Shown here in pieces: positions 2,700-34,584 of a DNA stretch of 64,000 nucleotides. Below the pieces are notes generated by a model that had not been told where the DNA came from, made no database searches, and saw only the letters and a list, made by a program, of their open reading frames with translations. The position numbers and the translations under genes were made by a program. Location: the NCBI GenBank assembly GCA_034717495.1, contig JAYELL010000001.1, positions 66,649-130,648 of the forward strand, written 5' to 3'. The DNA comes from Chloroflexota bacterium. Lineage in GTDB: Bacteria; Chloroflexota; Anaerolineae; JAAEKA01. Each line of letters opens with the position of its first letter. Positions within the stretch are counted from its first letter, which is position 1.

Positions 2700-2890
2700 C
2701 GGAGGTTCAGAGGTTCAGAGTATCAGAGGACAAGAGTATCAGAGTATCGGAGAAACAGAGTAACACTATAACAGGGAGTTGGTGGGTCTCGCAGATTGTT
2801 GACACTCCGACCCTCTGACACTCCGAGACTCCGACTCTCTGACATCCTGACATAATGATATTATACCATTTTGACACTAAAAGGAGCCCC
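2700..2890 (+). repeat. 8-bp-phased repeat array immediately upstream of the GH38 gene; candidate promoter or leader element
   Basis: Tandem octamers of NNNCAGAG type (gttcagag gttcagag tatcagag ...) followed by GACANNNN type (gacactcc gaccctct gacactcc gagactcc gactctct gacatcct gacataat). The array ends in ttgacact + aaaaggag RBS + ATG. Confidence 0.55.
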
Positions 2891-2892
2891 CC

Positions 2893-5800
2893 ATGCTACA
2901 TGAAATGCGTTGGACCGAAACGAAAATCAGGCAGCGTCTTGAGCTGATCGAGCCGTTGGTTTACCGCCGACGTCAGCCGTTGGCATCCTTCAGGCACATG
3001 ACCTTGCCTGATCCCCTGACAGATCCGCCCATCGGCATCGAGGTGGATGACAGTGATTGGGAGACCATTGAGCCCGACTCCTATTGGGGCATCTGGATGA
3101 CCGACTACGCGCTGCGCACGTCGTTCCAGGTGCCGCAGGACTGGGATGCCGACAGCCCTGTTGCCCTCTACTTGCCTTTGGGCGAGGCAGGAGACTTCAG
3201 CCATCCAGAGGGGCTGGCCTATATCGACGGCGAGCCCTACGCGGCCTGCGACCGTCATCACCAGGAGATACTACTACCCGACAAATGGCGCGATGGAAAG
3301 TCGCACCTGCTGGCCTTGCATACCTGGACCGGACTGGGTGGCTGGCGATTTGATTCCCCGGCTACCAAGCTCTTCATGCGCACGTGCGAGGTAGTTCAGC
3401 TGGACCAGCCGACCCGCGATTTTGTGGCAACAGCCAGGGTAGCCCTGGGCATCGCCAGCGCCCTGGACGAGAACGCACCGGCCAAGGGAAACCTTCTCAA
3501 CGCCCTGGACGAGGCGTTCAAGATCCTCGATACGCGCGCGCCACTCGCCGACCGGTTTTACAACAGCGTTGCCCCAGCGCACGCCGCCCTGCAAGCAGGG
3601 ATCGATCTGGCCGGGGCACCGATGGACGTGGACGTCGTCGGCGTGGGACACGCCCACATCGATGTGGCCTGGTTGTGGACCCTGGGCCAGACTCGCCGGA
3701 AATCGGGCCGCACCTTCCATACGGTATTGCGCCTGATGGAACAGTTTCCCGATTATCACTTCGTCCAGAGCCAGCCCCAGCTGTACGACTATATCCAGGA
3801 GGACTATCCCGGGTTGCTGGATGCAATCAAGGAGCGTGTTGCCGAAGGCCGCTGGGAACCTCTGGGGGGCATGTGGGTAGAGGCAGACTGCAATCTGAGC
3901 GGCCCTGAATCCCTGGCGCGTCAGTTTTTGCTGGGCCGCACCTTTTTCCAGGAACACTTCGGCCGCGATGCCGACTCTCCGGTGCTGTGGCTGCCTGACG
4001 TTTTCGGCTATGCGTGGGCATTGCCCCAACTCATCAAACAGGCGGGCCTGGACTACTTCATGACCATCAAGATCGGTTGGAACCAATACAACCGGCTGCC
4101 CTACGACAGCTTCTGGTGGCAGGGGCTGGATGGCACCAGGGTATTGACCCACTTCAGCACGACGCCGGACGTGGGCGGTGGTTTTGGTGCCAGCACGTAC
4201 AACGCCATGGCGGTACCCGAACAGGCCATTACCACCTGGACCAATTTCCAGCAGAAGGAGCTGCAGCAAGAACTGCTGATGATCTTTGGTTACGGCGACG
4301 GTGGCGGTGGACCCACGAGGGAGATGTTGGAGAATTTCCGCGAGCTGGAGGCTTTTCCGGCGACACCACGGATGCGGCAGGACAGCGCCGGTGATTTCTT
4401 CCGCAACCTTGAAACGACCTCCGGAGACCGCCTTCCGACCTGGAATGCTGAGCTCTATTTCGAGCTTCATCGCGGCACCTACACTACCCAGAGTCGCAAT
4501 AAGCGAGCCAACCGCAAGAGCGAGTTCTTGCTGCATGATGCCGAATATCTGGCCACATTAGCCGCCATGCTGGATTCTGGATATGAGTATCCTGCTGCTA
4601 CCATACGAAAGGCCTGGGAGTTGGTCTGCCTCAATCAGTTCCACGACATCATCCCGGGAAGCAGTATCAACCCTGTGTACGTCGAGTCCCTGGAACAGTA
4701 TGCCGAGATCGAGGAGATGGGGTCTGGCGTGCGAGACAAGGCTTTGCAGGCGGTGGCAACAATAATCGGCAGCGATATCCTGGTTGTGAACCCCACCTCC
4801 TTTGTCCTGGATGATCTGGCCTACCTGCCCGAGCAACTGCAGGCTGGTGAGCGTCTGCAGCGGCCCGATGGCGTGCCGGTACCGACCCAGGTGGCTGACG
4901 GTGGCACATGGGCCGCTACGGGCGAACTGGCTCCATTCAGCGTAACCCCGCTCGCCGTGGCCGGCGGCAACCCACCGGAGTTGGACACAGAACTCAATGT
5001 TTCGCCCACGCTGCTCGAAAACGCCTACCTCCGGGTGGAACTTGACCCGGCCGGTGACATCGTGCGCATTCTCGACAAGGCAAACGATCGGGAGGTGCTG
5101 CCGGCTGGTACGGTTGCCAATCAGTTCCAGGCCCTGGAGGACCGGCCAATGAACTGGGATGCCTGGGATGTGGACATCTTCATCGACGACAAGATGTGGA
5201 CTGCAGAACCGGCAACCTCGGTCGAGGTCGTGGAGGCGGGTCCGCTGCGGGCCACCCTGGAGATCCGCCGGCGCGTTCTCAACAGCAATTACGTTCAGCG
5301 CATCTCGTTGAGTCACAACAGCGCTCGCCTGGACTTCGATACCCAAATCGACTGGCGGGAACGTCATATCATGCTCAAAGTGGCCTTCCCGGTGGAGGTC
5401 TTCTCACCGGTGGCGACCTATGAGATCCAATGGGGCAACGTCGAGCGGCCCACCCACAGCAACACCAGTTGGGATTGGGCCCGCTTCGAGACCTGCGCTC
5501 AGAAATGGGTCGATCTTAGCGAGGGTGGCTATGGTATCAGTCTGCTCAACGACTGCAAGTATGGCCACGACATCAAGGACAATGTGATGCGCATTAGCCT
5601 GCTGCGCGGTCCAACCAGTCCCGATCCCGAGGCCGACCAGGGTGAACATCGTTTTGCGTACAGCTTGCTTCCCCACGCCGGTGGTTGGGGCGAGACGACA
5701 ATCGCGGCAGCCTATGCCTTGAATGATCCGTTGATTGTGTGGGTCAACCCAGGTGAACTTGAATCGTCGGCTCAGGCTACTCAGGTTGATGACTCTGGTG

Positions 5801-6093
5801 ATCGCCGCGTTGCCGTGTCTTCCCATCCCTCCTTCGTCTCGGTCGACCAGCCCAACGTGGTGGTGGAGACGATCAAACGAGCCGAGGATGGCAATGGTTT
5901 GATTGTGCGTCTTTACGAAAGCCAGCGCCGCCGTGGTCTTGTCACATTGACGGCGGCCTTTGAGGTTGCAGAGGCCTGGCATGCCAATCTCTTGGAGGAG
6001 AATGAGACGGAGCTGGAGGCCAGCGGCAACCAGGTGACCCTGTCCATCAAGCCCTACGAAATCGTGACCGTGCGTCTCATCCCGGTCGCCTGA
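2893..6093 (+). CDS. alpha-mannosidase, glycoside hydrolase family 38
   Basis: 1066 aa with GH38 N-terminal catalytic motifs (VGHAHIDVAWLW, LPDVFGY), followed by the central and C-terminal beta-sandwich regions typical of MngB-like enzymes. RBS aaaaggag sits upstream. Confidence 0.85.
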   Translation: MLHEMRWTETKIRQRLELIEPLVYRRRQPLASFRHMTLPDPLTDPPIGIEVDDSDWETIEPDSYWGIWMTDYALRTSFQVPQDWDADSPVALYLPLGEAGDFSHPEGLAYIDGEPYAACDRHHQEILLPDKWRDGKSHLLALHTWTGLGGWRFDSPATKLFMRTCEVVQLDQPTRDFVATARVALGIASALDENAPAKGNLLNALDEAFKILDTRAPLADRFYNSVAPAHAALQAGIDLAGAPMDVDVVGVGHAHIDVAWLWTLGQTRRKSGRTFHTVLRLMEQFPDYHFVQSQPQLYDYIQEDYPGLLDAIKERVAEGRWEPLGGMWVEADCNLSGPESLARQFLLGRTFFQEHFGRDADSPVLWLPDVFGYAWALPQLIKQAGLDYFMTIKIGWNQYNRLPYDSFWWQGLDGTRVLTHFSTTPDVGGGFGASTYNAMAVPEQAITTWTNFQQKELQQELLMIFGYGDGGGGPTREMLENFRELEAFPATPRMRQDSAGDFFRNLETTSGDRLPTWNAELYFELHRGTYTTQSRNKRANRKSEFLLHDAEYLATLAAMLDSGYEYPAATIRKAWELVCLNQFHDIIPGSSINPVYVESLEQYAEIEEMGSGVRDKALQAVATIIGSDILVVNPTSFVLDDLAYLPEQLQAGERLQRPDGVPVPTQVADGGTWAATGELAPFSVTPLAVAGGNPPELDTELNVSPTLLENAYLRVELDPAGDIVRILDKANDREVLPAGTVANQFQALEDRPMNWDAWDVDIFIDDKMWTAEPATSVEVVEAGPLRATLEIRRRVLNSNYVQRISLSHNSARLDFDTQIDWRERHIMLKVAFPVEVFSPVATYEIQWGNVERPTHSNTSWDWARFETCAQKWVDLSEGGYGISLLNDCKYGHDIKDNVMRISLLRGPTSPDPEADQGEHRFAYSLLPHAGGWGETTIAAAYALNDPLIVWVNPGELESSAQATQVDDSGDRRVAVSSHPSFVSVDQPNVVVETIKRAEDGNGLIVRLYESQRRRGLVTLTAAFEVAEAWHANLLEENETELEASGNQVTLSIKPYEIVTVRLIPVA

Positions 6094-6103: not shown

Positions 6104-6240
6104 AGGGCATGATATCCCAACTACGGAGCCTTGCCACGCGTGACGCCGCCCCACGGGATATCATGCCCCTGGGTACCCGCCGACGCCCGGCCACACGTGA
6201 CGACGCCCCATGGGATATCTTGTCCCCTGGGTACCCGGTG
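6104..6240 (+). promoter_or_regulatory. hairpin plus tandem ~55-bp palindrome-rich direct repeat between the GH38 and epimerase genes; operator-like
   Basis: gggcatgatatccc (6106-6119) is the reverse complement of gggatatcatgccc (6161-6174). Two ~85%-identical copies 'cac(g/a)cgtgacg(c/a)cgcccca(c/t)gggatatc(a/t)tg(c/t)ccctgggtaccc' each carry the palindromes CACGCGTG/CACACGTG and GGGTACCC. Confidence 0.5.
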
Positions 6241-6264
6241 CCTGTCATCAAGGAGATCATCACC

Positions 6265-7074
6265 ATGCCAAATCCCATCGGTAACGTCCGTCAAAAGGTA
6301 AAGATCGCAGCCGGCCTGTTCTGGGCGGATTACGCAGTGCTGGGCGCGCAGGTTCAGGAATTGGAGGCGGCCGGCGTCGACTGGTTGCATATCGAAGTGC
6401 GCGATGGCACCTATATGGACTTCGGCATGCCTCGCGGTGGCTTCGATATCATCGAGGCGGTGCGCAAAAGCACCTCCCTTCCGATCGAGGCACAGTTACA
6501 GATGGTGCGGCCGAGCTTCGATGTCTTTCGGCAACTGGCAGACCTGGGCGTGGACCTGATCACACTGCCGGTCGAGACGATGGCTGAACTCACAATGCAA
6601 GCCATCACCTTCATCAAGGACGCTCTCGATCTGAAGGCCGGCGTCTGGGCCTGGCAGGGTGTGCCGATAGCCGCGTTCGAGCAATACCTGTTACCTTTCG
6701 TCGACATCATCGAGTACGAGAGTCGGGCTCATTTCTGGGTCAAGGAAACTGGCAAGAGCCCTCACACCATGGACCCGATCATGGTCGAAAACATCCATCG
6801 TCTGCACACCATGATTCTTGACGCGGGGCTGGAGGAAAGAATCGATCTGATGGAGGACGGTGGCTTGAACGCCGGCAATGTGGCTGAGTTCATCGAAGCA
6901 GGCATGACCGTGGGCGAGTTTTCATCGCCGCTGCTCAAGGGACCCGATGGCAAATATCAGCCTGGCATCGGCCAGATCGAAGCAGCTGTGGCAAGGCTGC
7001 GTGCAGTGATGGATAAGGCGAGCGATACCTATCGAAACGAAGATGGGCTGATCAGCAGCCAACAGAAGAGGTAG
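6265..7074 (+). CDS. ribulose-phosphate 3-epimerase family protein, divergent, with non-canonical metal-site residues
   Basis: Collinear with RPE: IAAGLFWADYAVLGAQV / DWLHIEVRDGTYMDF / LPIEAQLQMV match IAPSILSADF.. / DWxHxDVMDGHFVPN / LPxDVHLMV. The conserved Asp (HxDVMDG) is Glu here and the DVHLMV His is Gln. RBS aaggag; start chosen after the repeat region. Confidence 0.5.
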   Translation: MPNPIGNVRQKVKIAAGLFWADYAVLGAQVQELEAAGVDWLHIEVRDGTYMDFGMPRGGFDIIEAVRKSTSLPIEAQLQMVRPSFDVFRQLADLGVDLITLPVETMAELTMQAITFIKDALDLKAGVWAWQGVPIAAFEQYLLPFVDIIEYESRAHFWVKETGKSPHTMDPIMVENIHRLHTMILDAGLEERIDLMEDGGLNAGNVAEFIEAGMTVGEFSSPLLKGPDGKYQPGIGQIEAAVARLRAVMDKASDTYRNEDGLISSQQKR

Positions 7075-7078: not shown

Positions 7079-8221
7079 ATGAAACAACTGGGAATCGCCA
7101 TGATCGGCTATGGCGGAATCGGCCGCGTGCACGCGATGGCCTACCGGACGATCCCGTTCCATTATGGCCTGGCCGCAGACACGTTCAGGATCGTTGGTGT
7201 TGCCACCACTCAGGAGACTACAGCCCGCAAGGCCGCGGCTGAGATTGGTTGCGAAAACTGGACGAGCGATTATCGGGACCTGCTGGCGCGCGACGATGTG
7301 GATCTGGTCGACGTCTGCGTGCCAAATCATAAACATGAGGAAATCGTCGTAGCGGCTGCCGAAGCTGGAAAACATATCTACTGCGAAAAACCACTCTCGA
7401 TGGATGTTGCAGAGGGCAAGCGCATGGTAGCTGCTTGCGAGCTGGCGGGAATAAAAACCCAGATGACCTTCAATTTTCGCTTTTTCCCGGCGATTACACG
7501 GGCGCGGCAGTTGATGGAGCAGGGCTTCCTGGGGCGCATCTTCTCCTTTCGGGGCCGCTACTACCGCTCCAGCTACATTGACACCAATAAACCCCTCTCC
7601 TGGCGATTGCGCAAGGAGATCGCCGGCGGCGGTGCCCTCTTTGACCTTGGGTCCCACGTGCTCGACCTGGTCACCTACCTGTTGGGTGATTTTGGGTCGG
7701 TACAGGCAACCATCGACACATTGATCAGGGAACGCCCGATAGCTCCCGGGTCGGATGAGATGGCCCCGGTGGATGTGGATGATATTGCTCTGATGCATCT
7801 GCGCATGGCCGATGGCACCCTGGGTCTTGTCGAGATCTCCCGGATGGGTACAGGTGCCACCAATGACCTCCAGATCGAGATATTTGGCGATCGGGGCGCG
7901 ATGCGCTTCAATTCGACCGACCCCAGTTGGCTGGAAGTGTATGATCTGCGGGACCCTGGTCAACCACTGGGCGGCATGAGGGGATTCCGTAAACTGGAAA
8001 CGGTGCAGCGCCACGAGGGTCAGAAGTCGCCCGACTGGTCGATGCCGCCAGGTTTTGTGCGGGCTCATGCCGAGTGTCAATACCAGTTCTTGCGTGCGAT
8101 CGTCGACGATGTCTCTTCCAGCCCGTCGCTGGCCGACGGCTTGCGTGTGCAGGAGGCCATGGAGGCGGCCCTTCAGTCCTCGGCCCAGAATCGCTGGGTA
8201 ACGGTGGAGGAAGTGAGGTAG
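7079..8221 (+). CDS. Gfo/Idh/MocA family NAD(P)-dependent oxidoreductase
   Basis: N-terminal Rossmann motif IAMIGYGGIGRVHA, EKPLS motif, C-terminal alpha/beta domain; 380 aa. Confidence 0.8.
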   Translation: MKQLGIAMIGYGGIGRVHAMAYRTIPFHYGLAADTFRIVGVATTQETTARKAAAEIGCENWTSDYRDLLARDDVDLVDVCVPNHKHEEIVVAAAEAGKHIYCEKPLSMDVAEGKRMVAACELAGIKTQMTFNFRFFPAITRARQLMEQGFLGRIFSFRGRYYRSSYIDTNKPLSWRLRKEIAGGGALFDLGSHVLDLVTYLLGDFGSVQATIDTLIRERPIAPGSDEMAPVDVDDIALMHLRMADGTLGLVEISRMGTGATNDLQIEIFGDRGAMRFNSTDPSWLEVYDLRDPGQPLGGMRGFRKLETVQRHEGQKSPDWSMPPGFVRAHAECQYQFLRAIVDDVSSSPSLADGLRVQEAMEAALQSSAQNRWVTVEEVR

Positions 8222-8291
8222 GATGACACGGAGACGCGGCGACGCAGAGACACGGCGATATTCTGACATTCCGACATTCTGACACACTGGC
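8222..8291 (+). repeat. 8-bp-phased GACA-type repeat array upstream of the ROK kinase gene
   Basis: gatgacac ggagacgc ggcgacgc agagacac ggcgatat tctgacat tccgacat tctgacac, then ATG at 8292. Confidence 0.55.
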
Positions 8292-9254
8292 ATGCTGAAT
8301 CCCTGGGTTATCGGCGCCGATTTGGGCGGCACCAAGATCGAGTTGGGCCTGGTTGATCCTGAGAACCAGGTTGTGGCCCGGAGGCGCATTGCCACCGAGG
8401 CCGAAAAAGGGCCCGATCACGTGGTCAACGGAATCGCTGGCAGCGTCGGCGATCTTCGCGCTGCCCTGCCTTCAGGAGCGAAGATAGCAGCTCTGGCCAT
8501 CTGCTCGCCCGGTCCGCTCGATCACGAAAGCGGTGTGTTGATGGACCCGCCCAATCTTCGCGGCCTTCATAACACACCCTTGCGCCAAATGCTGGAGGAT
8601 CGACTGCAGATGCCGGTTGCCCTGGAGCATGATGCTAAGGCCGCTGCTCTGGGTGAGCTTAACTTCGGTGCCGGCCGCGGGGCATCCAGTATGGTCTATA
8701 TCGTCGTCGGTACCGGTGTGGGTGCGGCCATAATCCTGGATGGCAACATGGTCCGCGGCGAACATAACTTTGCCGGTGAGGTAGGGCATATCACCATTGA
8801 CCGCTACGGGGAGTTGTGCCACTGCGGAAGCCGGGGCTGTGCCGAAACCTTTATCAGCGGTCCTTCCCTTGCGAAACGATATCGCCAGGCCATGGAGAAT
8901 GAGGGCAGCGCTGTAGATGCCCGGCCCATCTCGGGAGAGTTTGTGTCGGAGCTGGCTGCCCAGGGTGACCACCTGGCTGAAACCGTTATGCAGGCCGCCG
9001 GCGAGGCGCTGGGACTGGTCGTCGCTTCCCTGGCGATGACTGTCAATGTCGACCTGTATGTCATTGGCGGTAGTGTGGTCAATGCAGGTGACCTGCTGCT
9101 CGAGCCCGCGCGCCGTACTGTCCCCCACTATACCTTCCAGTCGGTGGGTGACAACGTGCGCATTGTTGCAGCCGGGCTGGGGGGAGTTGGACCCGTTCTG
9201 GGCTGTGCGTGGCTTGCCCGGCAGATCGACCAGGAGGATTTGCTGCAAAAATGA
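8292..9254 (+). CDS. ROK family sugar kinase (glucokinase-like; no N-terminal HTH)
   Basis: Begins directly with the ATP-binding motif IGADLGGTKIELGLVD. ROK zinc motif HCGSRGCAETFISG. 320 aa with no wHTH extension, so kinase rather than repressor. Confidence 0.75.
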   Translation: MLNPWVIGADLGGTKIELGLVDPENQVVARRRIATEAEKGPDHVVNGIAGSVGDLRAALPSGAKIAALAICSPGPLDHESGVLMDPPNLRGLHNTPLRQMLEDRLQMPVALEHDAKAAALGELNFGAGRGASSMVYIVVGTGVGAAIILDGNMVRGEHNFAGEVGHITIDRYGELCHCGSRGCAETFISGPSLAKRYRQAMENEGSAVDARPISGEFVSELAAQGDHLAETVMQAAGEALGLVVASLAMTVNVDLYVIGGSVVNAGDLLLEPARRTVPHYTFQSVGDNVRIVAAGLGGVGPVLGCAWLARQIDQEDLLQK

Positions 9255-11683
9255 GACAAACCTTGCACCAGCTCAACGAAAATCCCCTATCAGCCTTTCC
9301 TCCAGAGTTGTGGCATTCTACACGGCCCTCTGAACGGGCGGCCCGCATCAAGGGCCGGTTGCTGAGCGATGAACGCCAGGTTGATATCGAGCGGGCTCGC
9401 TACGCGACAGAGAGCTACAGGGAAACCGAGGGACGGCCCATGCCTCTGCGTCGGGCCGCCATGCTGCTTCATCTGGTCCGCCACATGAGCATCGGCATTG
9501 AGCCCGACGAGTTGATCGTGGGCAACCGTTCCTTGTTACCCAGAATGGGAGTCATTGCGCCGGAGGGCGCCGTCGCCTGGATCGATCGGGAACTGGATAT
9601 CCTTTCCACTCGTCCCCAGGATCGCTTCAACATTCGTCCGGAGCAGCGTAGTGAGCTCCGCGAACAGATATTTCCCTATTGGCAGGGCAAAACCCTGGAG
9701 GATATGGTTGCCAGGCGCGTGCCCGATCATGTCAAGGTAGCGGTGAAGGGCAAAGCCTTCAGTCTGAACCAGACCGATCATGCTCAGGGCCACATCCTGC
9801 CTGACGTCGCCGGTTGGTTGAGGCTTGGGATCGGCGGCTTCAGGCGAAAAGTGATCGAGGCTCAAGGTGGTGCTGAAACTGCCGGGCAGGAGGTGTTTTA
9901 CAGGGCCTCGCTGATGGCTCTTGAGGCGGCTCAAACCTTCATACGCCGTTACGCCCATCTCGCCCGTCAGCAGGCCAACGACATGGCCGAACAGACCAGA
10001 AGGGCTGAGTTGGAAGAGATCGCCTCGGCGTGCGATCTGCTTTCTGAACGGCCACCTCGAACCTTCGGGCAGGCATTGCAGGCGGTCTGGTTTCTTTTTG
10101 TGCTTCTGCAGATCGAATCAAATGCCAGCAGTTTTTCGCCCGGGCGCCTGGACCAATACCTGTTGCCCTGCCTGGAGCGGGATATTGCCTCGGGTCGCCT
10201 CTCCCTTCCCGAGGCCCAGGAACTGTTGGAGCATCTTTGGTTGAAGTTCAATGAGATCGTCTTGCTGCGAAGTAGCAGCAGCGCCCGCTATTTCGCCGGT
10301 TTTCCCATCGGTTTCAACATCTCCCTGGGAGGACAGCTGGAAGAGGGCCGCGATGCCACCAATATGCTCAGCTACATGTGCCTCAGGGCCCAGGCCGACC
10401 TGGGTCTGACTCAACCCAATCTGTCGATCCGTATCCACCAAAACAGCCCTCAGGAGTTTCTGATGGCTGCCACTGCTGTCATCAGCAAGGGCAGTGGTAT
10501 GCCCCAGGTGTTCAACGATGAGGTGGTGATCCCGGGCCAGATAAACCGGGGGATTGCCCCGGTCGACGCCCGAAACTACGCGGCCGTCGGCTGCGTTGAG
10601 CTGTCCACACCGGGCAAGGCATTGGGCTGGAGTGATTCCTCTATGTTCAATATGATCAGGGTGTTGGAGCTGACGCTCTTTGGCGGCAGAGACCCAAAGA
10701 GCGGCGACCTGATCGGCCTCGAAACGCCTGCCGTGGACGAGATGGATAGCTTCGATGCCCTCGAGGCTGCCTATGACTTGCAGTTGGCTCACTTCGTCGA
10801 TCTGATGGTGCAAGGCTGCAATGTGGTGGACCGCATTCATGCCGAGGTTCTGCCGTCCCCCTTTCTGTCGCTGGTTATCGAGGACTGCATCGACCAGGGG
10901 GTTGACGTTACTGCCGGCGGTGCCCGCTACAATTTCTCCGGTCCCCAGGGTGTGCAGATTGCCAACGTTGCCGATAGCCTGGCTGCCATTTGCCAGGCCG
11001 TTTTCGAGGAGGCGTGGCTCTCGGGCAGTGAGCTGCTCGACGCGCTGCAAAACGATTTTGCCGGCGACGAACAACTGCGGCAACGGCTGATCAACCGGGT
11101 TCCAAAATATGGCAACGACGACGACCGCGTCGACAGGTTCGCCAAAAAATGGGCAGGCCGTTTTTGCCAGGAAGTTGGCCAATACCCGACGATGCGGGGC
11201 GGGACCTACCAGCCTGGTTTTTATACCGTCTCCGGGCACATGCCCATGGGCGCCCATGTAGGCGCGACGCCGGATGGCCGTCATGCTGGCACACCGCTGG
11301 CGGACGGCGGACTTTCGCCCGTGGCCGGCCAGGACCGCAAAGGGCCGACGGCGGTACTTAATTCGGTCGGCAAAATCAACCTGGAACTGGCTTCCAATGG
11401 CACCTTGCTGAATATGAAGTTTTTGCCTTCTTTTTTCGAGGGACAGCAGGCACTGGAGAAGTTCGTCTTGTTGTTGCGAGGGTTCTGTAGCTTGCGAATC
11501 CCTCACGTGCAGTTCAATGTCGTCTCGGCTGATACCCTGCGCCAGGCTCAGATGCATCCCGATCAGTATCGCCACTTGGTTATCCGGGTAGCCGGCTACA
11601 GTGCCTACTTCAGCGACCTGGACAAAGATCTGCAGAATGAGATTATCCGCCGTACCGGGTTTCCCGACATTCCGACATGCTGA
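9251..11683 (+). CDS. glycyl radical enzyme, eliminase/dehydratase clade (PFL-like fold)
   Basis: C-terminal glycyl-radical motif RVAGYSAYFSDL. Cys loop GCVE (VGCVELSTPGK), typical of single-Cys/Glu GRE eliminases (glycerol dehydratase, CutC, HypD type) rather than the PFL CC type. N-terminal region matches GRE eliminases (ERARYATESYRETEGRPMPLRRA...LIVGN). The ATG at 9251 overlaps the ROK stop. Confidence 0.85.
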   Translation: MRQTLHQLNENPLSAFPPELWHSTRPSERAARIKGRLLSDERQVDIERARYATESYRETEGRPMPLRRAAMLLHLVRHMSIGIEPDELIVGNRSLLPRMGVIAPEGAVAWIDRELDILSTRPQDRFNIRPEQRSELREQIFPYWQGKTLEDMVARRVPDHVKVAVKGKAFSLNQTDHAQGHILPDVAGWLRLGIGGFRRKVIEAQGGAETAGQEVFYRASLMALEAAQTFIRRYAHLARQQANDMAEQTRRAELEEIASACDLLSERPPRTFGQALQAVWFLFVLLQIESNASSFSPGRLDQYLLPCLERDIASGRLSLPEAQELLEHLWLKFNEIVLLRSSSSARYFAGFPIGFNISLGGQLEEGRDATNMLSYMCLRAQADLGLTQPNLSIRIHQNSPQEFLMAATAVISKGSGMPQVFNDEVVIPGQINRGIAPVDARNYAAVGCVELSTPGKALGWSDSSMFNMIRVLELTLFGGRDPKSGDLIGLETPAVDEMDSFDALEAAYDLQLAHFVDLMVQGCNVVDRIHAEVLPSPFLSLVIEDCIDQGVDVTAGGARYNFSGPQGVQIANVADSLAAICQAVFEEAWLSGSELLDALQNDFAGDEQLRQRLINRVPKYGNDDDRVDRFAKKWAGRFCQEVGQYPTMRGGTYQPGFYTVSGHMPMGAHVGATPDGRHAGTPLADGGLSPVAGQDRKGPTAVLNSVGKINLELASNGTLLNMKFLPSFFEGQQALEKFVLLLRGFCSLRIPHVQFNVVSADTLRQAQMHPDQYRHLVIRVAGYSAYFSDLDKDLQNEIIRRTGFPDIPTC

Positions 11684-11923
11684 CACGGTGACACGGCGAC
11701 ACGGTGACATGGCAAATGTGCAGGAGTCGAGGCTGTGCGTAGCCCCCTTTTTGGGTTAGCCGGGAGAGAGACACGGCGACGCGGTGACACGGCGACGCGG
11801 CGACGCGGTGACACGGCGACGCGGAGACGCGGTGACACGGCGATGCGGAGACGCGGTGACACGGCGACGCGGAGACACAGCGACACGGCGACATGCTGAC
11901 ATTCCGACCTGAGGAGGTGACAA
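11684..11923 (+). repeat. long 8-bp-phased GNGACNCG repeat array (about 28 octamers) upstream of the URO-D-like gene
   Basis: gacattccgacatgctgacacggtgacacggcgacacggtgacatggc ... gacacggcgacgcggtgacacggcgacgcggcgacgcggtgacacggcgacgcggagacgcggtgacacggcgatgcggagacgcggtgacacggcgacgcggagacacagcgacacggcgacatgctgacattccgac, then gaggaggtgacaaATG. Confidence 0.6.
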
Positions 11924-13156
11924 ATGCTAAGTTCGCGTGAACGGGTGATGATGGCTGTTAACCACCGGGAGCCCGATCGCGTACCGATCGATCTGGGCGG
12001 CCATCGCTCGTCCGGGATCATGGCGATTGCCTACAATCAGCTGAAGCGGCAGCTGGGAATCGACTCGGGCGACATCTACGTCTACGATTTTCTGCAGCAA
12101 TTGGCGATTATCGAGCCTGAGGTGTTGGACCGCTTTGGCGTCGACACAATCGAAATGGGGCGCGGGTTTGCACTTGAGCCGGAAGACTGGCAGGATTGGG
12201 TGTTGCCTGACGGGACCCCGTGCAAGATTCCCTCCTTCATTCACCCTGTTCGCGAAGGCAATGATTGGTACGTCTACCACGAGGATGGCACTCGAATCGC
12301 GGTTCAGAAAGAGAGCTGTTTATATGTGGAGCAGACCTGTTTCCCGCTTGCTGAGAGCGACGATCAGCTCTTTGACGATCTGGCAACGCCCCTGGAAAGG
12401 GTCATGTGGGCAGCCGTGGGTACCCCTCCGGCGCCCATTGGCTACGACGAACAGGGGCTGCAACAACTGGCTGCCGGGGCGAAGGCTCTGCGCGAGTCGA
12501 GCGATCGGGCCATAATCGGACTCTTCGGCGGGAACATCTACGAGTTGCCCCAGTGGCTCTTCAGCATGGAAAACTTTTATTACCTCATGGGCGCGGAGCC
12601 ACAGCGAGTACACCGGCTGTTGGACCAACTGGTAGCCATGCACTTGGAGAACCTGGAGAAGTTCCTGTCAGCGGTTGGGCCCTACATCGACATCATTCTT
12701 TTCGGCGACGACCTGGGTATGCAGAGTGGCCCCCAGTTCTCGCCTCGCATGTTCGAGACCTACTTCCAGCCTCGTTACACTCTGATGTGGGAAACGGCCA
12801 GACGCCTTGCCGATGTCAAGGTAATGCTGCATTGCTGCGGCAGTATCACGCGGTTATTGCCCGGCCTGATCGAAGCGGGGTTGGATATCATTCAGCCTGT
12901 CCAGACCAACGCACGGGATATGGAACCTGACCGGCTCAAGCGCGAGTTTGGCAAGGATATCTGTCTCTGGGGCGGTGGATGTGACACACAGCAGGTGTTG
13001 CCCTGCGGGTCACCCGAGGAGGTGGCCGAGAATGTTCGTCAGAACGTAGAGATCCTGGCGCCGCAAGGCGGCTACGTATTTCAGCAGATTCATAACGTGA
13101 TGGCCGATGTTCCGCCCGAAAATATCGTCGCCATGCTGGATGCTGTTAACCCCTGA
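11924..13156 (+). CDS. uroporphyrinogen decarboxylase (URO-D/MtaA) family protein
   Basis: N-terminus ERVMMAVNHREPDRVPIDLGG matches the URO-D family opening (ERVxAALxGxxxDRVP). C-terminal core FSPRMFETYFQPRY...VMLHCCGSITRLLPGLIEAGLDIIQPVQ...ICLWGG...PQGGYVFQQIHNV. Confidence 0.7.
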   Translation: MLSSRERVMMAVNHREPDRVPIDLGGHRSSGIMAIAYNQLKRQLGIDSGDIYVYDFLQQLAIIEPEVLDRFGVDTIEMGRGFALEPEDWQDWVLPDGTPCKIPSFIHPVREGNDWYVYHEDGTRIAVQKESCLYVEQTCFPLAESDDQLFDDLATPLERVMWAAVGTPPAPIGYDEQGLQQLAAGAKALRESSDRAIIGLFGGNIYELPQWLFSMENFYYLMGAEPQRVHRLLDQLVAMHLENLEKFLSAVGPYIDIILFGDDLGMQSGPQFSPRMFETYFQPRYTLMWETARRLADVKVMLHCCGSITRLLPGLIEAGLDIIQPVQTNARDMEPDRLKREFGKDICLWGGGCDTQQVLPCGSPEEVAENVRQNVEILAPQGGYVFQQIHNVMADVPPENIVAMLDAVNP

Positions 13157-13169
13157 GAACGGAGGCTTC

Positions 13170-14405
13170 ATGGCTGGAGCACAACGCGGGAATTCCAGAT
13201 TGCTCATCGCCTTGGCGTTCCTGAGCTTCATCGCAATGGGTCTGTTTGTCGGCTTGATGGGCGTGGCCTGGCCATCTATTCGCCTGAGCTATGGCATCCC
13301 TCTCGATGCCATAGGGGCTTTGTTTCTGTTTTCCATGGCCGCATCTCTGATCTTTAGCTTCAGTAGTGGCCGTCTGATAGCTGGCGTCGGATTAGGTGTC
13401 CTTCTGTTAATCGGCGGAATCCTGGCCTCTCTGGGTTTTTTGGGATACGCGGCAGCGCCCGCCTGGTGGACGATGATTCTGGCCGCGGCCATCGCCTCGG
13501 CGGGCACCACACTCATAAACACCGGCCTCAATACCTACTTCGCCATCATTTCCACGGCAAGTCTCATGAGCTGGCTCCACGCCAGCTTTGGTCTGGGCGC
13601 TACCATCAGTCCGATCGTGATGGCTGCTATGCTGAATGCCGGATATTCCTGGCGCTGGGGTTTCGCCTTCGTGGCACTCTGTTTCGCTGTTTTGTCCCTC
13701 CTCTACCTCTTCACCCGCAGGCACTGGCCTCTGCCAGAGCACAAGGCCTCCGACCAATCCACCGACGTACCGGTGCAGTCCAGCTACCGGGACAGCCTGA
13801 AACTTGCAGGCGTCTGGCTGAGCCTGTTGCTTTTTGCCGCCTTTACCGGCATGGAGGGGACCGCGGGCCAGTGGCCCTATGTGCTTTTCACCGAATCACG
13901 CGCTATAGATCCTGTCGTCGCCGGCCTGTGGGTCAGTATCTTTTGGGCCAGCATCACGATGGGCCGGCTGTTCTTTGGCGCGATCGTCGGTCGAACGGGC
14001 ACCGTCCCACTGATTCGCGCTTGCGGCGTGCTGATCGTCGCTGGATCGGCTCTGCTCTGGTGGAATCCCAGCAATACACTCAGTTTCGCAGGCCTCATCC
14101 TGATCGGTTTCGCTGCGTCCCCGTATTTCCCGGTGCTTGCCTCGGAAACACCCAGATTGTTTGGCCAGGAGAACGCCGCCAACATAATCGGATTCCAGAT
14201 TACTGCCGTTCGTCTGGGATTGGCTATCGTGCCGGCTTCCGTCGGGGTTCTGGCCCGCGCCGCCGGCCTGGAGACCATTGGCTTGTCGATGTTTGCAATT
14301 GCCGTTGCGGTTGTCGTATTATATGAGTTGACCCTGCGCACCACGGCGCGTGCCGAAACGGCGCTGCCCGAAGGCGAGGGGAGTTATGGAAAGGAACTAG
14401 CATGA
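13170..14405 (+). CDS. MFS transporter
   Basis: About 12 predicted TM helices; Gly/Ala-rich hydrophobic profile. The start at 13170 (RBS ggagg) follows the previous stop. Confidence 0.75.
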   Translation: MAGAQRGNSRLLIALAFLSFIAMGLFVGLMGVAWPSIRLSYGIPLDAIGALFLFSMAASLIFSFSSGRLIAGVGLGVLLLIGGILASLGFLGYAAAPAWWTMILAAAIASAGTTLINTGLNTYFAIISTASLMSWLHASFGLGATISPIVMAAMLNAGYSWRWGFAFVALCFAVLSLLYLFTRRHWPLPEHKASDQSTDVPVQSSYRDSLKLAGVWLSLLLFAAFTGMEGTAGQWPYVLFTESRAIDPVVAGLWVSIFWASITMGRLFFGAIVGRTGTVPLIRACGVLIVAGSALLWWNPSNTLSFAGLILIGFAASPYFPVLASETPRLFGQENAANIIGFQITAVRLGLAIVPASVGVLARAAGLETIGLSMFAIAVAVVVLYELTLRTTARAETALPEGEGSYGKELA

Positions 14406-15460
14406 CCAATTTATTGAAGGTAGGAGTTATCGGTGTCGGTGGTATCGCCAAATGGCACATGCCAGGATGGCAGGCATCTGAACATGCCGAGGTCGTTGCA
14501 GGCAGTGATATCGCCGGGGATGTGCTCGCTGGCTGGGGTGCAGAGTTTTCTGTCGACCGGCTCTACACCGATCCGGCGGATCTCTTTGCTGATCCAGACA
14601 TTGACATCATCGACATTTGCACGCCCAATATGTCCCACACGCCCCTGGTGATTGCGGCGCTGGACGCGGGAAAAAACGTCATCTGCGAGAAGCCGTTGGC
14701 TGCCACACCGGGGGAGATCGAGCAGATGATTGAGGCCCGCGATCGTTCCGGAAAACTTTTGATGACCGCACAACATTTCCGCTTCAAGGGTGTATCTCAG
14801 ACCATGAAGCAGGAGATCGAGGCGGGTGCGCTGGGAGATGTGTATCACGCGCGCAGCTGGCAATTGCGACGCAATGGCTTGTTTGTGCGGCCCAGTTTTA
14901 CGCGCAAGGAGTTCAGCGGGGGTGGCCCCTGTATCGACATCGGTGTACATATCCTCGACCTGTCGCTTTGGTTGATGGGCAATCCCCGGCCTGTGGCAGT
15001 GAGCGGTGTGGCCTGGGCGCCGTTGGCCCATCACGACAGGGCTTTTGCCAGTTGGACTGGCGAACTTATCCGCCCCGATTTCGATGTCGAGGACTATGCC
15101 GCCGCTTTCGTCAGATTCGACACCGGTGCCACGTTGATTCTTGAAGTGAGCTGGCTGCTGCATCACGATATCGAAGGGGAGGATTCTCAAGTGTGGCTCT
15201 ACGGCACCGAAGGTGGATGCCATTGGCCCAAGGCTCTGTTTCTCGAAACCAACTACGATTCAAAACAATTTTACAATCGCACGCTCAAGTTGACCGGGGA
15301 TGCCATGGAACCTCACGGGCTGGAGTGTGTGGCCTTTGCCGAGGCTGTGGCGGAAGGCAGGCCCTCACCCGTGCCGGCCGAACAGTCTCTTCAGGTCATG
15401 ACCATTTTGGATGGCATCTATCGCAGCCAGGAGACTGGACGCGAAATCTGGTTCGAATAA
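14402..15460 (+). CDS. Gfo/Idh/MocA family oxidoreductase
   Basis: VGVIGVGGIAKWHMPGW Rossmann N-terminus, CEKPLA motif; 352 aa. Confidence 0.8.
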   Translation: MTNLLKVGVIGVGGIAKWHMPGWQASEHAEVVAGSDIAGDVLAGWGAEFSVDRLYTDPADLFADPDIDIIDICTPNMSHTPLVIAALDAGKNVICEKPLAATPGEIEQMIEARDRSGKLLMTAQHFRFKGVSQTMKQEIEAGALGDVYHARSWQLRRNGLFVRPSFTRKEFSGGGPCIDIGVHILDLSLWLMGNPRPVAVSGVAWAPLAHHDRAFASWTGELIRPDFDVEDYAAAFVRFDTGATLILEVSWLLHHDIEGEDSQVWLYGTEGGCHWPKALFLETNYDSKQFYNRTLKLTGDAMEPHGLECVAFAEAVAEGRPSPVPAEQSLQVMTILDGIYRSQETGREIWFE

Positions 15461-15464
15461 AGGA

Positions 15465-16475
15465 ATGACAATTATGTTACGCACCGCAATGCTCGGCGTT
15501 GCCCATGTCCACGCCAATGGCTACGCCCGTCAGATTATCGAACATCCCGAAGCGCAGATCGTTTGTGTCTGGGATGACCAGGCTGACCGGGGAACGGCGG
15601 CCGCCGCCAGGTATGGAGTCCCGTTCGCCGATGACCTGGAGGCCCTTTTGAGTCGCCAGGATGTGGATGGTGTAGTGGTCAACGCGCCCACCGACCAGCA
15701 CCCTGAGATTCTAATAGCCGCAGCCGCTCATGGCAAACATATCTTCACCGAAAAAGCCCTCACGATCGCGACAGCCGACGCCGACCGGGTTGTCGACGCC
15801 GTCCACGCCAGTGGCATTAAGTTCATGATCTCCCTGCCAAGACGTACCTGGCCGGAAAGCCTGTTTTTCAAACAGGTGCTCGACGAGGGTTGGTTGGGCC
15901 GCGTCACCATGATGCGCGCGCGCCTGGCCCACCCCGGCGCGCTGGATCGATGGTTCAGCGGGCCGACCGCCTGGTTTGGCGACAGGGAGCAAGCGGGAGG
16001 CGGTGCATTGTTCGACCTGGGCTGTCACATCGTCGATCTGATGGGCTGGTTTCTCGGTGAGCCTGCCAGCGTCGTGGCAGTGACTCAGAATTTCAGCGGC
16101 GAATATGACATCGACGACCAGACCGTGGCCATCGTGCAGTTCAAGCAAGGTGCCCTGGGAATCCTGGACTGCACCTGGGTCCATCGGGCGGGCCCAAATC
16201 CTATTGAGATCTACGGCACGGAAGGCTACGCGGGCTATGATGGCCGGCGCGAGTCTATCCAGTTGATCAGCAACGAACTGCAGCCTGAGGGGATTCGCGG
16301 CAGCATTCACCCTCTGGAACTACCCGAGGCGCTGCCCTCTCCCATGGATCAGTGGATCAGCGCCGTGCTGCACGATACACCGATGACCATTGGCATCGAG
16401 GACGGCCGAAATCTTACGCGGCTCATGGAAGCGATCTACCAAGCTGCTGACAGTGGCTGCCAGGTTGTGGTTTGA
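15465..16475 (+). CDS. Gfo/Idh/MocA family oxidoreductase
   Basis: MLGVAHVHANGYARQI...TEKALT motif with dimerisation domain. The start could alternatively be the ATG at 15474. Confidence 0.75.
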   Translation: MTIMLRTAMLGVAHVHANGYARQIIEHPEAQIVCVWDDQADRGTAAAARYGVPFADDLEALLSRQDVDGVVVNAPTDQHPEILIAAAAHGKHIFTEKALTIATADADRVVDAVHASGIKFMISLPRRTWPESLFFKQVLDEGWLGRVTMMRARLAHPGALDRWFSGPTAWFGDREQAGGGALFDLGCHIVDLMGWFLGEPASVVAVTQNFSGEYDIDDQTVAIVQFKQGALGILDCTWVHRAGPNPIEIYGTEGYAGYDGRRESIQLISNELQPEGIRGSIHPLELPEALPSPMDQWISAVLHDTPMTIGIEDGRNLTRLMEAIYQAADSGCQVVV

Positions 16476-16527
16476 TGTCAATATGTCAGCATGTCAAAAT
16501 GACACAATGACATTCTGGAGAAAACCT
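16476..16527 (+). repeat. short GACA/TGTC octamer-type element upstream of the DHS-SIS gene
   Basis: gatgtcaatatgtcagcatgtcaaaatgacacaatgacattctggagaaaacct ATG. It shares the gacat(t)ccgacatgctgaca core seen at 8.26, 11.67, 11.89, 30.0 and 56.70 kb. Confidence 0.45.
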
Positions 16528-18249
16528 ATGCCTTTCCCGGCAATCGACACATCTCTCGTCCGCACCTACGCGCTGTCGGAACGACCGAGCCTGGTGGCCC
16601 TTGACCACCTTATCACACCGGAAATGCCGGTGCCGCCATTCGACAACCCGGAACTGGTCGAAGTAGCTACGCGAATCGTGGCTGCGCGCCAGGCGGGACG
16701 GCCTGTGATCTGGATGATCGGTGCTCATGTTGTGAAGCGTGGTCTGGCTCCGGTGCTCATCGACCTGATGCGGCGGGGCGTGATTACCCATCTGGCCAGC
16801 AATGGCGCAGCGCCGATCCATGACTTTGAGATTGCCTTGCTGGGCAATACCAGCGAGGATGTGTCCACAAGTCTTGAGGATGGCAGTTTCGGCATGGCGG
16901 AGGAAACGGGCGCTTTCATGAACCGGGCAATCCAGGCAGGCGCCCGCAGTGGTATCGGAGTTGGCGAGGCCCTGGGCCAATGGATTGCAGGGCATGATCG
17001 TTTTCGCTTCCGGGATCAGAGCCTGCTTTACTCTGCCTTCCACCTTGGAATCCCCTATACGGTGCATGTTGCGATTGGCACAGACATCATCCACCAGCAC
17101 CCGGAATGTGATTTCGCGGCCCTCGGTTGGGCCAGTGGTCAGGACTTCAAGGTCTTCACCAGTTCGGTCAGTCAACTGGAGGGTGGAGTCTTCTGTAACT
17201 TCGGTTCAGCGGTGATAGGTCCGGAGGTCTTCCTGAAGGCCCTTTCCATTGCTCGCAATCTGGGGCATAGGGTGCAGGTCTTCACTACGGCGAACTTCGA
17301 TATATTGCCCCTGGAGCAAGACTATCGTAAGCCCTCAACCGACGACCAGCCGACCTACTATTATCGACCGAAGAAGAATATTGTTATCCGGCCTACCTCC
17401 ATGGGTGGACGTGGCTACCACATCGTCGGTGATCACCGGGATACCATACCTAATTTGCATCATGAGGTAGTTCAAGGGCTCGCCGGTACGACCCTGCCCA
17501 ACCCACTGGATCGACGAAATGCAGCATTCGAAGGAGCTGGCGACCTGGAGATGCAATTTCCCAGGGCGGCCGCGTGCCTGTTGGGGGCGATCGAACGGCA
17601 ACCTGCTCTTGAGCCGGTGACGACCGCACTGATCGATGCTTTTCGTGTAGTAAATCTGGCTGAATCGACCGGTGGCACGCTTTTTCTCTGCGGAAACGGC
17701 GGAAGCATGGCAGACGCGCTGCACATTTCCGGCGAGCTACTGAAATCCTACGCCAGGAAACGATCTTTGGAGCAAGGCAGGTGCGATCGCTTGCTTCAGC
17801 AGCCCGATGGGGAACTGTTGGCTCGAAACCTGGAGCCTGGCCTGCGGGCAGTGGTTCTGGGCATCAACCCGTCGCTGGCCAGCGCCGTCGCCAACGACAT
17901 GCCCGATCGTGATATGAACCTGGCTCAGGAGTTGATGGCCCTGGCTCGTCCAGGCGACGTGCTGTTGGGCATCAGCACAAGCGGCAATGCCCGAAATGTG
18001 GCCTATGCCGCGCAGACTGCCCGCGCCCTCGGCGTCCATGTAATCGCTCTTACCGGCGAGGCCGGGGGCCTGCTCGCCGGCCTCGCCGATGTGGCCATCA
18101 AGGTTCCAGCTCAGCGCACCGACCGGGTCCAGGAGTTGCACATCCAGTGCTATCATACCCTGTGTGAAATGCTGGAGGAGCAGTTTTTTGGCGAGGAGGT
18201 TGGGCCATCGCAGGGATGTGTCCATCAACCGTTGGCCCTGTCACCTTGA
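16528..18249 (+). CDS. fusion protein: N-terminal deoxyhypusine-synthase-like (DHS-like NAD-binding) domain and C-terminal GmhA-type SIS domain (sedoheptulose-7-phosphate-isomerase-like)
   Basis: C-terminal ~190 aa is collinear with GmhA: LFLCGNGGSMADALHISGELL...VLLGISTSGNARNV...IALTGEAGG...VPAQRTDRVQELHIQCYHTLCE. N-terminal ~380 aa shows the DHS-like pattern (VIWMIGAHVVKRGLAPVLIDLMRRGVITHLASNGAAPIHDFEIALLG, compare IFLGYTSNLVSSGLRE..VDVLVTTAGGIEEDFIK). The domain assignment of the N-terminus is inferred from memory. Confidence 0.5.
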   Translation: MPFPAIDTSLVRTYALSERPSLVALDHLITPEMPVPPFDNPELVEVATRIVAARQAGRPVIWMIGAHVVKRGLAPVLIDLMRRGVITHLASNGAAPIHDFEIALLGNTSEDVSTSLEDGSFGMAEETGAFMNRAIQAGARSGIGVGEALGQWIAGHDRFRFRDQSLLYSAFHLGIPYTVHVAIGTDIIHQHPECDFAALGWASGQDFKVFTSSVSQLEGGVFCNFGSAVIGPEVFLKALSIARNLGHRVQVFTTANFDILPLEQDYRKPSTDDQPTYYYRPKKNIVIRPTSMGGRGYHIVGDHRDTIPNLHHEVVQGLAGTTLPNPLDRRNAAFEGAGDLEMQFPRAAACLLGAIERQPALEPVTTALIDAFRVVNLAESTGGTLFLCGNGGSMADALHISGELLKSYARKRSLEQGRCDRLLQQPDGELLARNLEPGLRAVVLGINPSLASAVANDMPDRDMNLAQELMALARPGDVLLGISTSGNARNVAYAAQTARALGVHVIALTGEAGGLLAGLADVAIKVPAQRTDRVQELHIQCYHTLCEMLEEQFFGEEVGPSQGCVHQPLALSP

Positions 18250-19363: not shown

Positions 19364-19371
19364 CGCGTAGA

Positions 19372-34567: not shown

Positions 34568-34584
34568 CAGATGAAAGGAAGAAA

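Follow-up and report, generated by a model that had tools for sequence, protein, structure and literature searches.

What does a glycyl radical enzyme (GRE) do among genes for sugar catabolism, when no gene for an activating enzyme lies nearby? The question is raised by an 810-amino-acid protein (NCBI MEA3334321.1) from a metagenome-assembled genome (MAG) of a Chloroflexota bacterium. Its gene lies in a 64,000-nucleotide stretch of contig JAYELL010000001.1 (assembly GCA_034717495.1, positions 66,649 to 130,648 of the forward strand), which we will call the window. A preliminary description, made from the sequence alone, presented the protein as an orphan enzyme of the eliminase type, embedded in a cluster for the catabolism of mannosides and sugars, and stated that no characterized GRE substrate fit this context. 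We found that the protein belongs to the same clade as PflD from Escherichia coli. We propose that it is a functional PflD-type enzyme that carries out PflD-like chemistry on an anhydro-hexitol-6-phosphate, and we put the probability of this at about 0.6.

Membership in the PflD clade

The gene for the GRE, an oxygen-sensitive radical enzyme, is an intact open reading frame (ORF; Table 1). It begins with ATG, and GGAGGA lies 12 nt upstream of this start codon. (Translation from an alternative GTG, in frame at 9209, would lengthen the protein by 14 residues, to 824 amino acids.) In the sequence ATGA, this ATG overlaps with the stop codon of the preceding gene, which encodes a ROK-family sugar kinase, so the two genes are translationally coupled. 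The protein matches the Pfam domains PFL-like (PF02901, 702.6 bits) and Gly_radical (PF01228, 107.2 bits), and its score against TIGR01774 from NCBIfam (876.9 bits) is above the cutoff.

Translation and alignment place both of the motifs that had been described. The glycyl radical motif RVAGYSAYF is at residues 779–787, and Gly782 aligns with Gly763 of glycerol dehydratase (GDH) and Gly741 of PflD. The cysteine loop GCVE is at residues 447–450, with Cys448 as the thiyl-radical cysteine and Glu450 as the general base; these align with Cys419 and Glu421 of PflD, Cys431 and Glu433 of 8id0, and Cys433 and Glu435 of GDH. Both the radical glycine and the catalytic cysteine are therefore retained, and the GCVE loop is unchanged across 56 members of the family. 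The single cysteine and glutamate of this loop make the protein a CXE-type GRE, as already recognized. We rejected the idea that it is a pyruvate formate-lyase: there is no Cys-Cys dipeptide in the whole protein, and it scored just 158.8 bits against TIGR01255, whose cutoff is 994.

In a sequence search against the PDB, the best match was E. coli PflD (8yjo, 752.7 bits), followed by 8id0 (669.7 bits), GDH (1r8w, 645.5 bits), and propanediol dehydratase (PD; 5i2a, 608.3 bits). The score for another E. coli GRE, YbiW, was about 528 bits. The window's GRE is 46.5% identical to E. coli PflD (over 779 residues) and 39.6% identical to YbiW. As reported by Ma et al. (JACS 2024) and summarized in a 2026 review (PMC13450708) and in PMC12441222, both PflD and YbiW open a ring by C-O lysis and are called "GRE isomerases". 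According to the same sources, the substrate of PflD is 1,5-anhydromannitol-6-phosphate (AM6P) and the substrate of YbiW is 1,5-anhydroglucitol-6-phosphate. Both enzymes form 1-deoxy-fructose-6-phosphate, which is split by FsaA or FsaB. E. coli phosphorylates the substrates via a phosphotransferase system (PTS), and the pathway is termed "anhydroglycolysis". Because its closest studied relative opens the ring of a phosphorylated anhydro-sugar, and with a kinase gene coupled to its own, the window's GRE does not lack a plausible substrate. The earlier framing of the protein as an eliminase or dehydratase also needs revision, as its nearest relatives are ring-opening C-O lyases and the pocket residues of GDH and PD are absent from it. 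On the other hand, the preliminary suggestion of a sugar-derived substrate, possibly an anhydro-sugar, matches the chemistry of its closest characterized relatives.

To place the protein among other GREs, we used 215 sequences: the window's GRE, 74 GREs translated from related genome loci, PflD, YbiW, 8id0, GDH, PD, 9rco, and 134 full-length sequences, each representing one of the clusters that an exhaustive search gave at 50% identity. The sequences of 8id0, GDH, PD, and 9rco were rebuilt from HMMER alignments, and their numbering was validated by Cys431, Cys433, and Cys438. The smallest clade that contains both the window's GRE and PflD has 81 members and a neighbor-joining bootstrap of 100/100. 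This clade includes 8id0 and all 74 homologs from the related loci, while YbiW, GDH, PD, 9rco, and the remaining 130 representatives are outside it.

The PflD clade has three groups. Group A contains E. coli PflD, 8id0, and Thermoanaerobacterium-type sequences; group B contains sequences from Firmicutes, Spirochaetota, and Chloroflexia; and group C, which is distinct from group A (bootstrap 98/100), is the window's own subfamily. Group C is found in Chloroflexota, KSB3, and Acidobacteriota, with 65–76% identity to the window's GRE. More than 120 clusters are 70–76% identical to it, and these come from Anaerolineae, Caldilineae, KSB3 (Moduliflexus and Vecturithrix), and others. In the collection of papers that we searched, none describes the group C subfamily. 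The window's GRE thus appears to be an uncharacterized environmental member of the recently solved PflD group, with a substrate that we predict from sequence comparisons.

Several motifs are shared across the PflD clade and are absent from GDH, PD, 9rco, and YbiW: LNQTD(H/K)xQGHI, ESNASS, LLRSxSSA(R/K)xFAGFPxG, VGCVE(L/T)S, YTVS(A/G)H, and LADGG(L/M)SP, the last with one extra glycine. We also mapped ten pocket columns by alignment from the known pocket of GDH and PD; the mapping is supported by the alignment's reproducing Phe344 and Val696 of PD. The GDH residues H164, H281, S282, Y339, W445, H446, D447, Y640, S642, and N645 correspond, in that order, to H181, S293, S294, G354, W460, S461, D462, Y658, V660, and H663 in the window's GRE and to H156, S265, S266, G325, L431, H432, D433, Y617, V619, and H622 in PflD. 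Eight of the ten (H181, S293, S294, G354, D462, Y658, V660, and H663) are the same in the window's GRE as in PflD, and these eight are invariant in the 56 family C sequences. E. coli PflD (8YJO; 8ID0 with AM6P) and the window's GRE share a full-length GRE fold, the glycine loop, the CXE loop, the clade, and the motifs.

We also noticed a private change in the window's GRE: residue 662 (nt 11234–11236) is glycine (YTVSGH), while PflD and 55 of the 56 family members have alanine. A662G lies beside the pocket residues Val660 and His663.

Gene neighborhoods and a proposed pathway

We fetched 80 related genome loci (numbered with the prefix L) and screened them with tblastn for the window's genes and for a GRE activase. 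A recurring cluster has the order zinc alcohol dehydrogenase (Zn-ADH) - Rpe-like - Gfo1 - sugar-binding protein with two permeases - (GMC oxidoreductase) - HbpS-like - ROK - GRE - (Dabb) - activase, where Rpe-like is a divergent TIM barrel related to ribulose-phosphate 3-epimerase (Rpe) and Gfo1 is an oxidoreductase of the Gfo/Idh/MocA family. The Rpe-like, Gfo1, and ROK genes of this cluster have orthologs in the window (50–81% identity). An activase was found in 58 of the 80 loci.

ROK homologs are present in 46 of the 80 loci, and orthologs with at least 45% identity are present in 30 of 51 family C loci; at most ortholog loci, ROK adjoins the GRE. The window's ROK kinase scores 201 bits against TIGR00744 (ROK glucokinase family), which is below the cutoff of 260.35, and its best matches in the PDB are ROK glucokinases. 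ROK glucokinases are 6-kinases of pyranoses. From these similarities, we predict that ROK is the analogue of the E. coli PTS and delivers a 6-phosphorylated sugar. A phosphorylated anhydro-hexitol as the substrate of the GRE fits this context because the kinase is translationally coupled to it.

A locus from an Acidobacteriaceae MAG (L035) links the kinase to the GRE more directly. Its order is a SorC-type regulator, a ROK::radical-SAM fusion, the GRE, an Fsa homolog, a GlcU-type transporter, and DUF1479. The fusion is a single ORF of 645 amino acids (8064–10001 of L035) in which a ROK kinase is joined to a GRE activase, and it lies directly 5' of the GRE ortholog. Further ROK-activase fusion proteins are present in the protein database (P0352 and P0359). 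As a "Rosetta stone", the fusion ties the phosphorylation of a sugar to the GRE system. The fructose-6-phosphate-aldolase homolog at this locus scores 229 bits against TIGR00875, and Fsa-type aldolases adjoin the GRE in three acidobacterial orthologs (L030, L035, and L042), which indicates a product like 1-deoxy-fructose-6-phosphate.

In E. coli, the two loci are gldA-fsaB-ptsA / frwCB-pflD-pflC-frwD and ybiU-ybiV-ybiW-ybiY / fsaA. L035 mirrors both the ybiU-ybiV-ybiW-ybiY/fsaA and the gldA-fsaB...pflD-pflC gene sets, except that a kinase substitutes for the PTS; in particular, ybiU (DUF1479) and fsaA, which are neighbors of ybiW, have counterparts there. The DUF1479/Gig2-like gene of L035 (14129–15394, minus strand) is from the same family as ybiU, which suggests that DUF1479 is an unrecognized conserved accessory of anhydro-sugar GRE loci. 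Compared with the pflD locus of E. coli, a ROK kinase, together with an ABC or MFS transporter, takes the place of the Frw PTS, and the window encodes neither an activase nor an Fsa aldolase.

If our proposal is correct, then a 1,5-anhydro-hexitol (1,5-anhydromannitol or a close stereoisomer) would be imported and would be phosphorylated at O6 by the ROK kinase. Beforehand, Gfo1 and the Rpe-like barrel may prepare or interconvert the anhydro-hexitol; we speculate that they might interconvert the gluco and manno forms via a keto intermediate. The GRE would be activated post-translationally by a radical-SAM activase whose gene lies at another place in the genome, and Gly782 would thereby receive the radical. 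The radical would move from Gly782 to Cys448, which would take a hydrogen from C2 of the substrate, and Glu450 would deprotonate the C2 hydroxyl. The C1-O5 bond of the ring would then break heterolytically to give an alpha-keto radical, which would be quenched by the thiol of Cys448. The product would be 1-deoxy-fructose-6-phosphate, and an aldolase would split it into glyceraldehyde-3-phosphate and hydroxyacetone.

Gfo1 resembles levoglucosan dehydrogenase (LGDH). Its best match in the PDB is 6a3f (251.8 bits), and the 6A3x entries, including 6A3I, are LGDH (PMC10066097). Like Gfo1, LgdA (6A3F–6A3J) has the Gfo/Idh/MocA fold, and it acts on an anhydro-sugar. But Gfo1 scores 295.5 bits against the LGDH model (NF052479 LevoglcsnDh), its best match in NCBIfam, far under the equivalog cutoff of 650, and no partners LgdB1, LgdB2, or LgdC were identified in the window. 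Orthologs of Gfo1 (65–77% identity) are present in about 17 family C loci.

The Rpe-like gene is always immediately 5' of Gfo1 in the ortholog loci. Its orthologs are 70–81% identical in 11 family C loci and 62% identical in a group B locus (L063). It scores 71 bits against TIGR01163, far under the cutoff of 212.6. The window also contains an Rpe paralog (56983–57678), and where this paralog has two histidines, which we take to be the metal ligands of Rpe, the Rpe-like barrel has threonine and glutamine (in the motifs DGTYM and EAQLQ). Because of these replacements, the barrel is probably not a standard ribulose-phosphate 3-epimerase. It also has an N-terminal extension of about 60 residues.

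The GMC-family FAD oxidoreductase of the recurring cluster lies between the ABC permeases and the HbpS-like and ROK genes (L086, 4470–6023; L087, 4746–6254). The window lacks this enzyme, which is only weakly similar to choline dehydrogenase, pyranose oxidase, and MftG and may oxidize the imported sugar.

Other readings and the missing activase

Several observations weigh against a PflD-like role. The best equivalog model for the window's GRE is that of PflD (NF007437, PRK09983), but the score of 848.7 bits is below the cutoff of 1109. To our knowledge, biochemistry exists for group A (46% identity to the window's GRE) and not for groups B or C. The pocket columns that we compared are a stand-in derived from GDH and PD, rather than the actual contacts of AM6P in 8ID0. 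Furthermore, systematic differences separate groups B and C from group A in the pocket-lining segments (K152→H177, Y326→F355, Y429→L458, L431→W460, and H432→S461), and all five substituted positions are invariant in the 56 family C sequences. The window's GRE keeps 9 of 25 strict PflD-signature positions, that is, positions that are invariant in four group A sequences and that fewer than 10% of the sequences beyond the PflD clade have, which counts against exact isofunctionality. (We give more weight to the mapped pocket columns and the motifs because many of the signature positions are peripheral.) The E. coli pathway lacks counterparts of Gfo1, the Rpe-like barrel, the GMC oxidoreductase, HbpS-like, and Dabb. 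Finally, an Fsa homolog was not found in the window (the best tblastn hit had E = 0.11), and neither was an activase, as discussed below.

So we also considered that the enzyme might perform PflD-type radical cleavage of a C-O (or C-X) bond in a different phosphorylated sugar derivative, which would be a new class of GRE substrate within the PflD clade. Candidates are another epimer of the 1,5-anhydro-hexitols, or a product that Gfo1, the Rpe-like barrel, and the GMC oxidoreductase would make in the metabolism of levoglucosan or 3-keto-glycosides. The five substitutions in the pocket segments could alter the stereospecificity or the substrate specificity, and the partners that E. coli lacks and the score below the PflD cutoff point the same way. 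However, 8 of the 10 mapped pocket positions and all of the PflD-specific motifs are kept, the Fsa-type aldolase beside the acidobacterial orthologs argues for a product like 1-deoxy-fructose-6-phosphate, and supplying or epimerizing anhydro-hexitols would explain the partner oxidoreductases. We view this alternative as possible but tentative. In a more specific version, which we consider rather doubtful, the group C enzymes would act not on AM6P but on a new phosphorylated sugar, of the anhydro or keto type, which the LGDH-like dehydrogenase, the Rpe-like barrel, and the GMC oxidoreductase would make, and one sublineage would have a URO-D-like partner and a distal activase. This could be, for example, an anaerobic radical route for anhydro-sugars derived from levoglucosan or 3-keto-glycosides. 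Overall, it seems unlikely, although not far-fetched, that the true substrate is something other than an anhydro-hexitol-6-phosphate.

Within the anhydro-hexitol-6-phosphates, the enzyme might instead be YbiW-like and prefer 1,5-anhydroglucitol-6-phosphate over the manno epimer. YbiW and PflD have the same reaction class, the same product, and phosphorylated anhydro-hexitols as substrates; 1,5-anhydroglucitol is more common in nature (PMC12441222); and His432 of PflD is replaced by Ser461 in the window's GRE. But while YbiW (8ID7/8YJN) has the CXE loop as well, the window's GRE is less similar to it than to PflD (39.6% versus 46.5% identity), and YbiW is outside the PflD clade with 100% support. 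All of the pocket-lining motifs differ (the signature motifs of YbiW are AEGNMTSGDAHL, ESNGHS, GCIETAVGG, and SSISAN), and YbiW has none of the 25 PflD-signature positions. We think that a YbiW-like specificity is improbable.

Another concern about a PflD-type function is activation. The preliminary description stated that no radical-SAM activase is encoded anywhere in the 64 kb, and searches by motif, by Pfam, and by tblastn all came up empty as well. The window has two matches to CxxxCxxC, both in shadow ORFs that are out of frame or antisense; Pfam found neither a Radical_SAM nor a Fer4_12 domain in any major ORF of the window; and tblastn of the window with PflC, YbiY, and an ortholog-linked activase gave nothing better than E = 1.4. 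Nevertheless, the orphan status is less notable than it had seemed. Of the 23 family C loci whose flanks each span 9 kb or more, 18 have a canonical activase and 5 have none, and the activase-distal layout marks one minority sublineage.

The complete 4.87-Mb chromosome of a member of the Anaerolineae (L001) illustrates this layout. It has no activase within 10 kb of its GRE, and as in the window, the GRE is followed by a URO-D-like gene (80% identical to UROD1, the gene that follows the window's GRE) and an MFS transporter. A scan that started from UROD1 found three more contigs with GREs (L088, L090, and L115), none with an activase. Their gene orders are ROK - GRE - UROD1 - SIS in L088; ROK - GRE - UROD1 - GSU2086/SIS - URO-D-like - PfkB - HAD - pentapeptide in L090, which is the window's order minus MFS, Gfo2, and Gfo3; and GRE - UROD - Gfo2 - MFS1 in L115. 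The GREs of the URO-D-linked contigs form a subclade that is the nearest group to the window's GRE, beside those of the activase-distal loci L006, L017, and L056. In both the URO-D-linked and the activase-distal GREs, the catalytic and pocket residues are all intact. As these residues are invariant in the activase-distal sublineage, we infer from the alignments that the activase was relocated long ago in this minority sublineage and that the GRE is activated in trans, rather than decaying.

The opposite reading, that the GRE is a decaying or inactive remnant, is very improbable. It would explain why the 64 kb lack an activase. A search for the family's activase in a set of 5.8 billion proteins also gave no match from the source contig among the best 120 of 7275, but this listing is uninformative. 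The remnant reading does not explain why the ORF is full-length with intact catalytic and pocket residues, or why it has a ribosome-binding site and is translationally coupled to ROK. Furthermore, at least 10 activase-distal contigs (L001, L006, L017, L019, L033, L055, L056, L088, L090, and L115) keep these residues invariant, and at 70–83% pairwise identity this indicates purifying selection.

Least probable of all is the role of a classical GRE eliminase that dehydrates glycerol or 1,2-propanediol independently of B12: GDH (Clostridium butyricum, 1R8W) and PD (Roseburia inulinivorans, 5I2A) score well against the window's GRE and share with it the fold, the CXE loop, and the equivalents of His164, Ser282, Asp447, and Tyr640, but the pocket of the window's GRE is opened and re-lined (H281→S293, Y339/F344→G354, N645→H663, V660 in the S642/V696 column, which is Ser in GDH and Val in PD, and the extra glycine in LADGGLSP), GDH, PD, and 9rco cluster elsewhere (100/100), and a coupled kinase makes no sense with a diol, as the substrates of GDH and PD are unphosphorylated and their operons have no need of a kinase.

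Other features of the window, and implications

Table 1. Positions of the GRE, its motifs, and other features discussed in the text (coordinates are relative to the window).
Feature	Position	Strand	Evidence or remark
GH38	2893–6093		Pfam
Rpe-like (divergent ribulose-phosphate-3-epimerase-like TIM barrel)	6109–7074	+	Pfam Ribul_P_3_epim, 64 bits
Gfo1 (Gfo/Idh/MocA oxidoreductase, levoglucosan-dehydrogenase-like; conserved partner in GRE clusters)	7079–8221	+	Pfam
ROK-family sugar kinase, predicted 6-kinase supplying the phosphorylated substrate	8292–9254	+	Pfam ROK, 237.9 bits
GRE, 810 amino acids, PflD clade, predicted anhydro-hexitol-6-phosphate C-O lyase	9251–11683	+	ORF, Pfam, phylogeny
Cysteine loop GCVE	10589–10600	+	Translation, alignment
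Glycyl radical motif RVAGYSAYF	11585–11611	+	Translation, alignment
GRE-UROD1 spacer of (GAC+N5) octamer tandem repeats	11666–11913	+	Weak terminator-like hairpin at 11731–11744
UROD1 (URO-D-like; follows the GRE in a sublineage)	11924–13156	+	Pfam URO-D, 80 bits
MFS1 (MFS transporter, candidate importer)	13107–14405	+	Pfam MFS_1; start codon uncertain
Gfo/Idh/MocA genes after MFS1	14402–15460, 15411–16475		Pfam
UROD2 (second URO-D-like)	18407–19363		Pfam
GH2, beta-mannosidase-like	21548–24079		Pfam
Second MFS transporter	24076–25290		Pfam
Fourth Gfo/Idh/MocA gene	49986–51059	-	Outside the array, about 25 kb past its end

As described previously, the GRE gene is located between genes for a ROK kinase and a URO-D-like protein, and Pfam annotates both neighbors (Table 1). 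After MFS1, the array continues with two Gfo genes, a GSU2086/SIS fusion, the second URO-D-like gene, PfkB, HAD, GH2, and MFS. The gene types reported for this array (GH38, GH2, MFS, and Gfo) were confirmed, but it has three co-directional Gfo genes instead of four, as the fourth is distant and on the minus strand. GH38, GH2, PfkB, HAD, and the SIS fusion were found by tblastn in none of the 80 related loci. The mannosidases are thus specific to the source genome, and we rejected them as definers of the GRE's substrate.

UROD1 and UROD2 show weak similarity to MtaA and HemE, and no corrinoid protein is encoded nearby. A sequence search of the PDB found no match for UROD1. Orthologs of UROD1 (62–81% identity) are common in metagenomes and are mostly apart from any GRE. 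We considered UROD1 as an obligate partner of the GRE and rejected this, as a GRE is present at just 3 of about 9 UROD1 ortholog loci that have enough upstream sequence. The order GRE-UROD-MFS is kept in L001, where MFS1 is 58% identical to the window's.

Part of the array (16390–21284) forms a module of a GSU2086-domain::GmhA-like SIS fusion, a URO-D-like protein, a PfkB kinase, and a HAD phosphatase. The same module is found at 6662–11427 of L090 and at 9342–12491 of L098, and it occurs with and without a GRE. The SIS/PfkB/HAD trio resembles the heptose-phosphate enzymes GmhA, HldA, and GmhB. A separate sugar or polyol cluster (31874–47882) encodes a SorC regulator, an FGGY kinase, a DeoC/LacD aldolase, a class II fructose-bisphosphate aldolase, a DRL-type oxidoreductase, a Zn-ADH, DUF6786, a fucose-isomerase-like protein, a TAT-signal protein, two ABC permeases, a Cpn60/TCP-1-family protein, and a BNR-repeat protein.

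Tandem repeats with a period of 8 nt make up almost every longer intergenic spacer of the window (2801–2856, 8225–8288, 11666–11713, 11770–11913, 21293–21524, 51305–51351, 56730–56960, and 62343–62391). Read in the sense of the downstream gene, the repeat unit is mostly GAC+N5 (GACACGGC, GACGCGGT, GACTCTGA, and GACACTCC). Runs of at least three (GAC N5) units were observed 10 times, versus 0.56 expected from shuffles, and such runs are immediately 5' of GH38, ROK, UROD1, and GH2. They might conceivably be elements of untranslated regions or regulatory elements. An Rfam scan of the window gave no match, and a scan for terminators and promoters around the GRE gave counts near chance.

The value of our analysis is mainly corrective: the GRE is neither substrate-less nor unusually orphaned. 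It also means that annotations of group C-type proteins as "pyruvate formate-lyase" or "glycyl radical protein" can be refined. If our proposal is correct, then anhydroglycolysis would reach beyond gut Enterobacteria and Firmicutes with PTS uptake and would be widespread in environmental anaerobes, including Anaerolineae, Caldilineae, KSB3 filaments, and Acidobacteriota from peat and soil. Their version of the pathway would be a kinase-based form with extra redox enzymes, and the ROK kinase, the ROK::activase fusion, and the pair of LGDH-like and Rpe-like proteins make up a testable gene set. 1,5-Anhydro-hexitols or related anhydro-sugars, for which plants, biomass burning, and the lyases of starch or glycogen are possible sources, would then be overlooked carbon sources in sediments, sludge, and soils.

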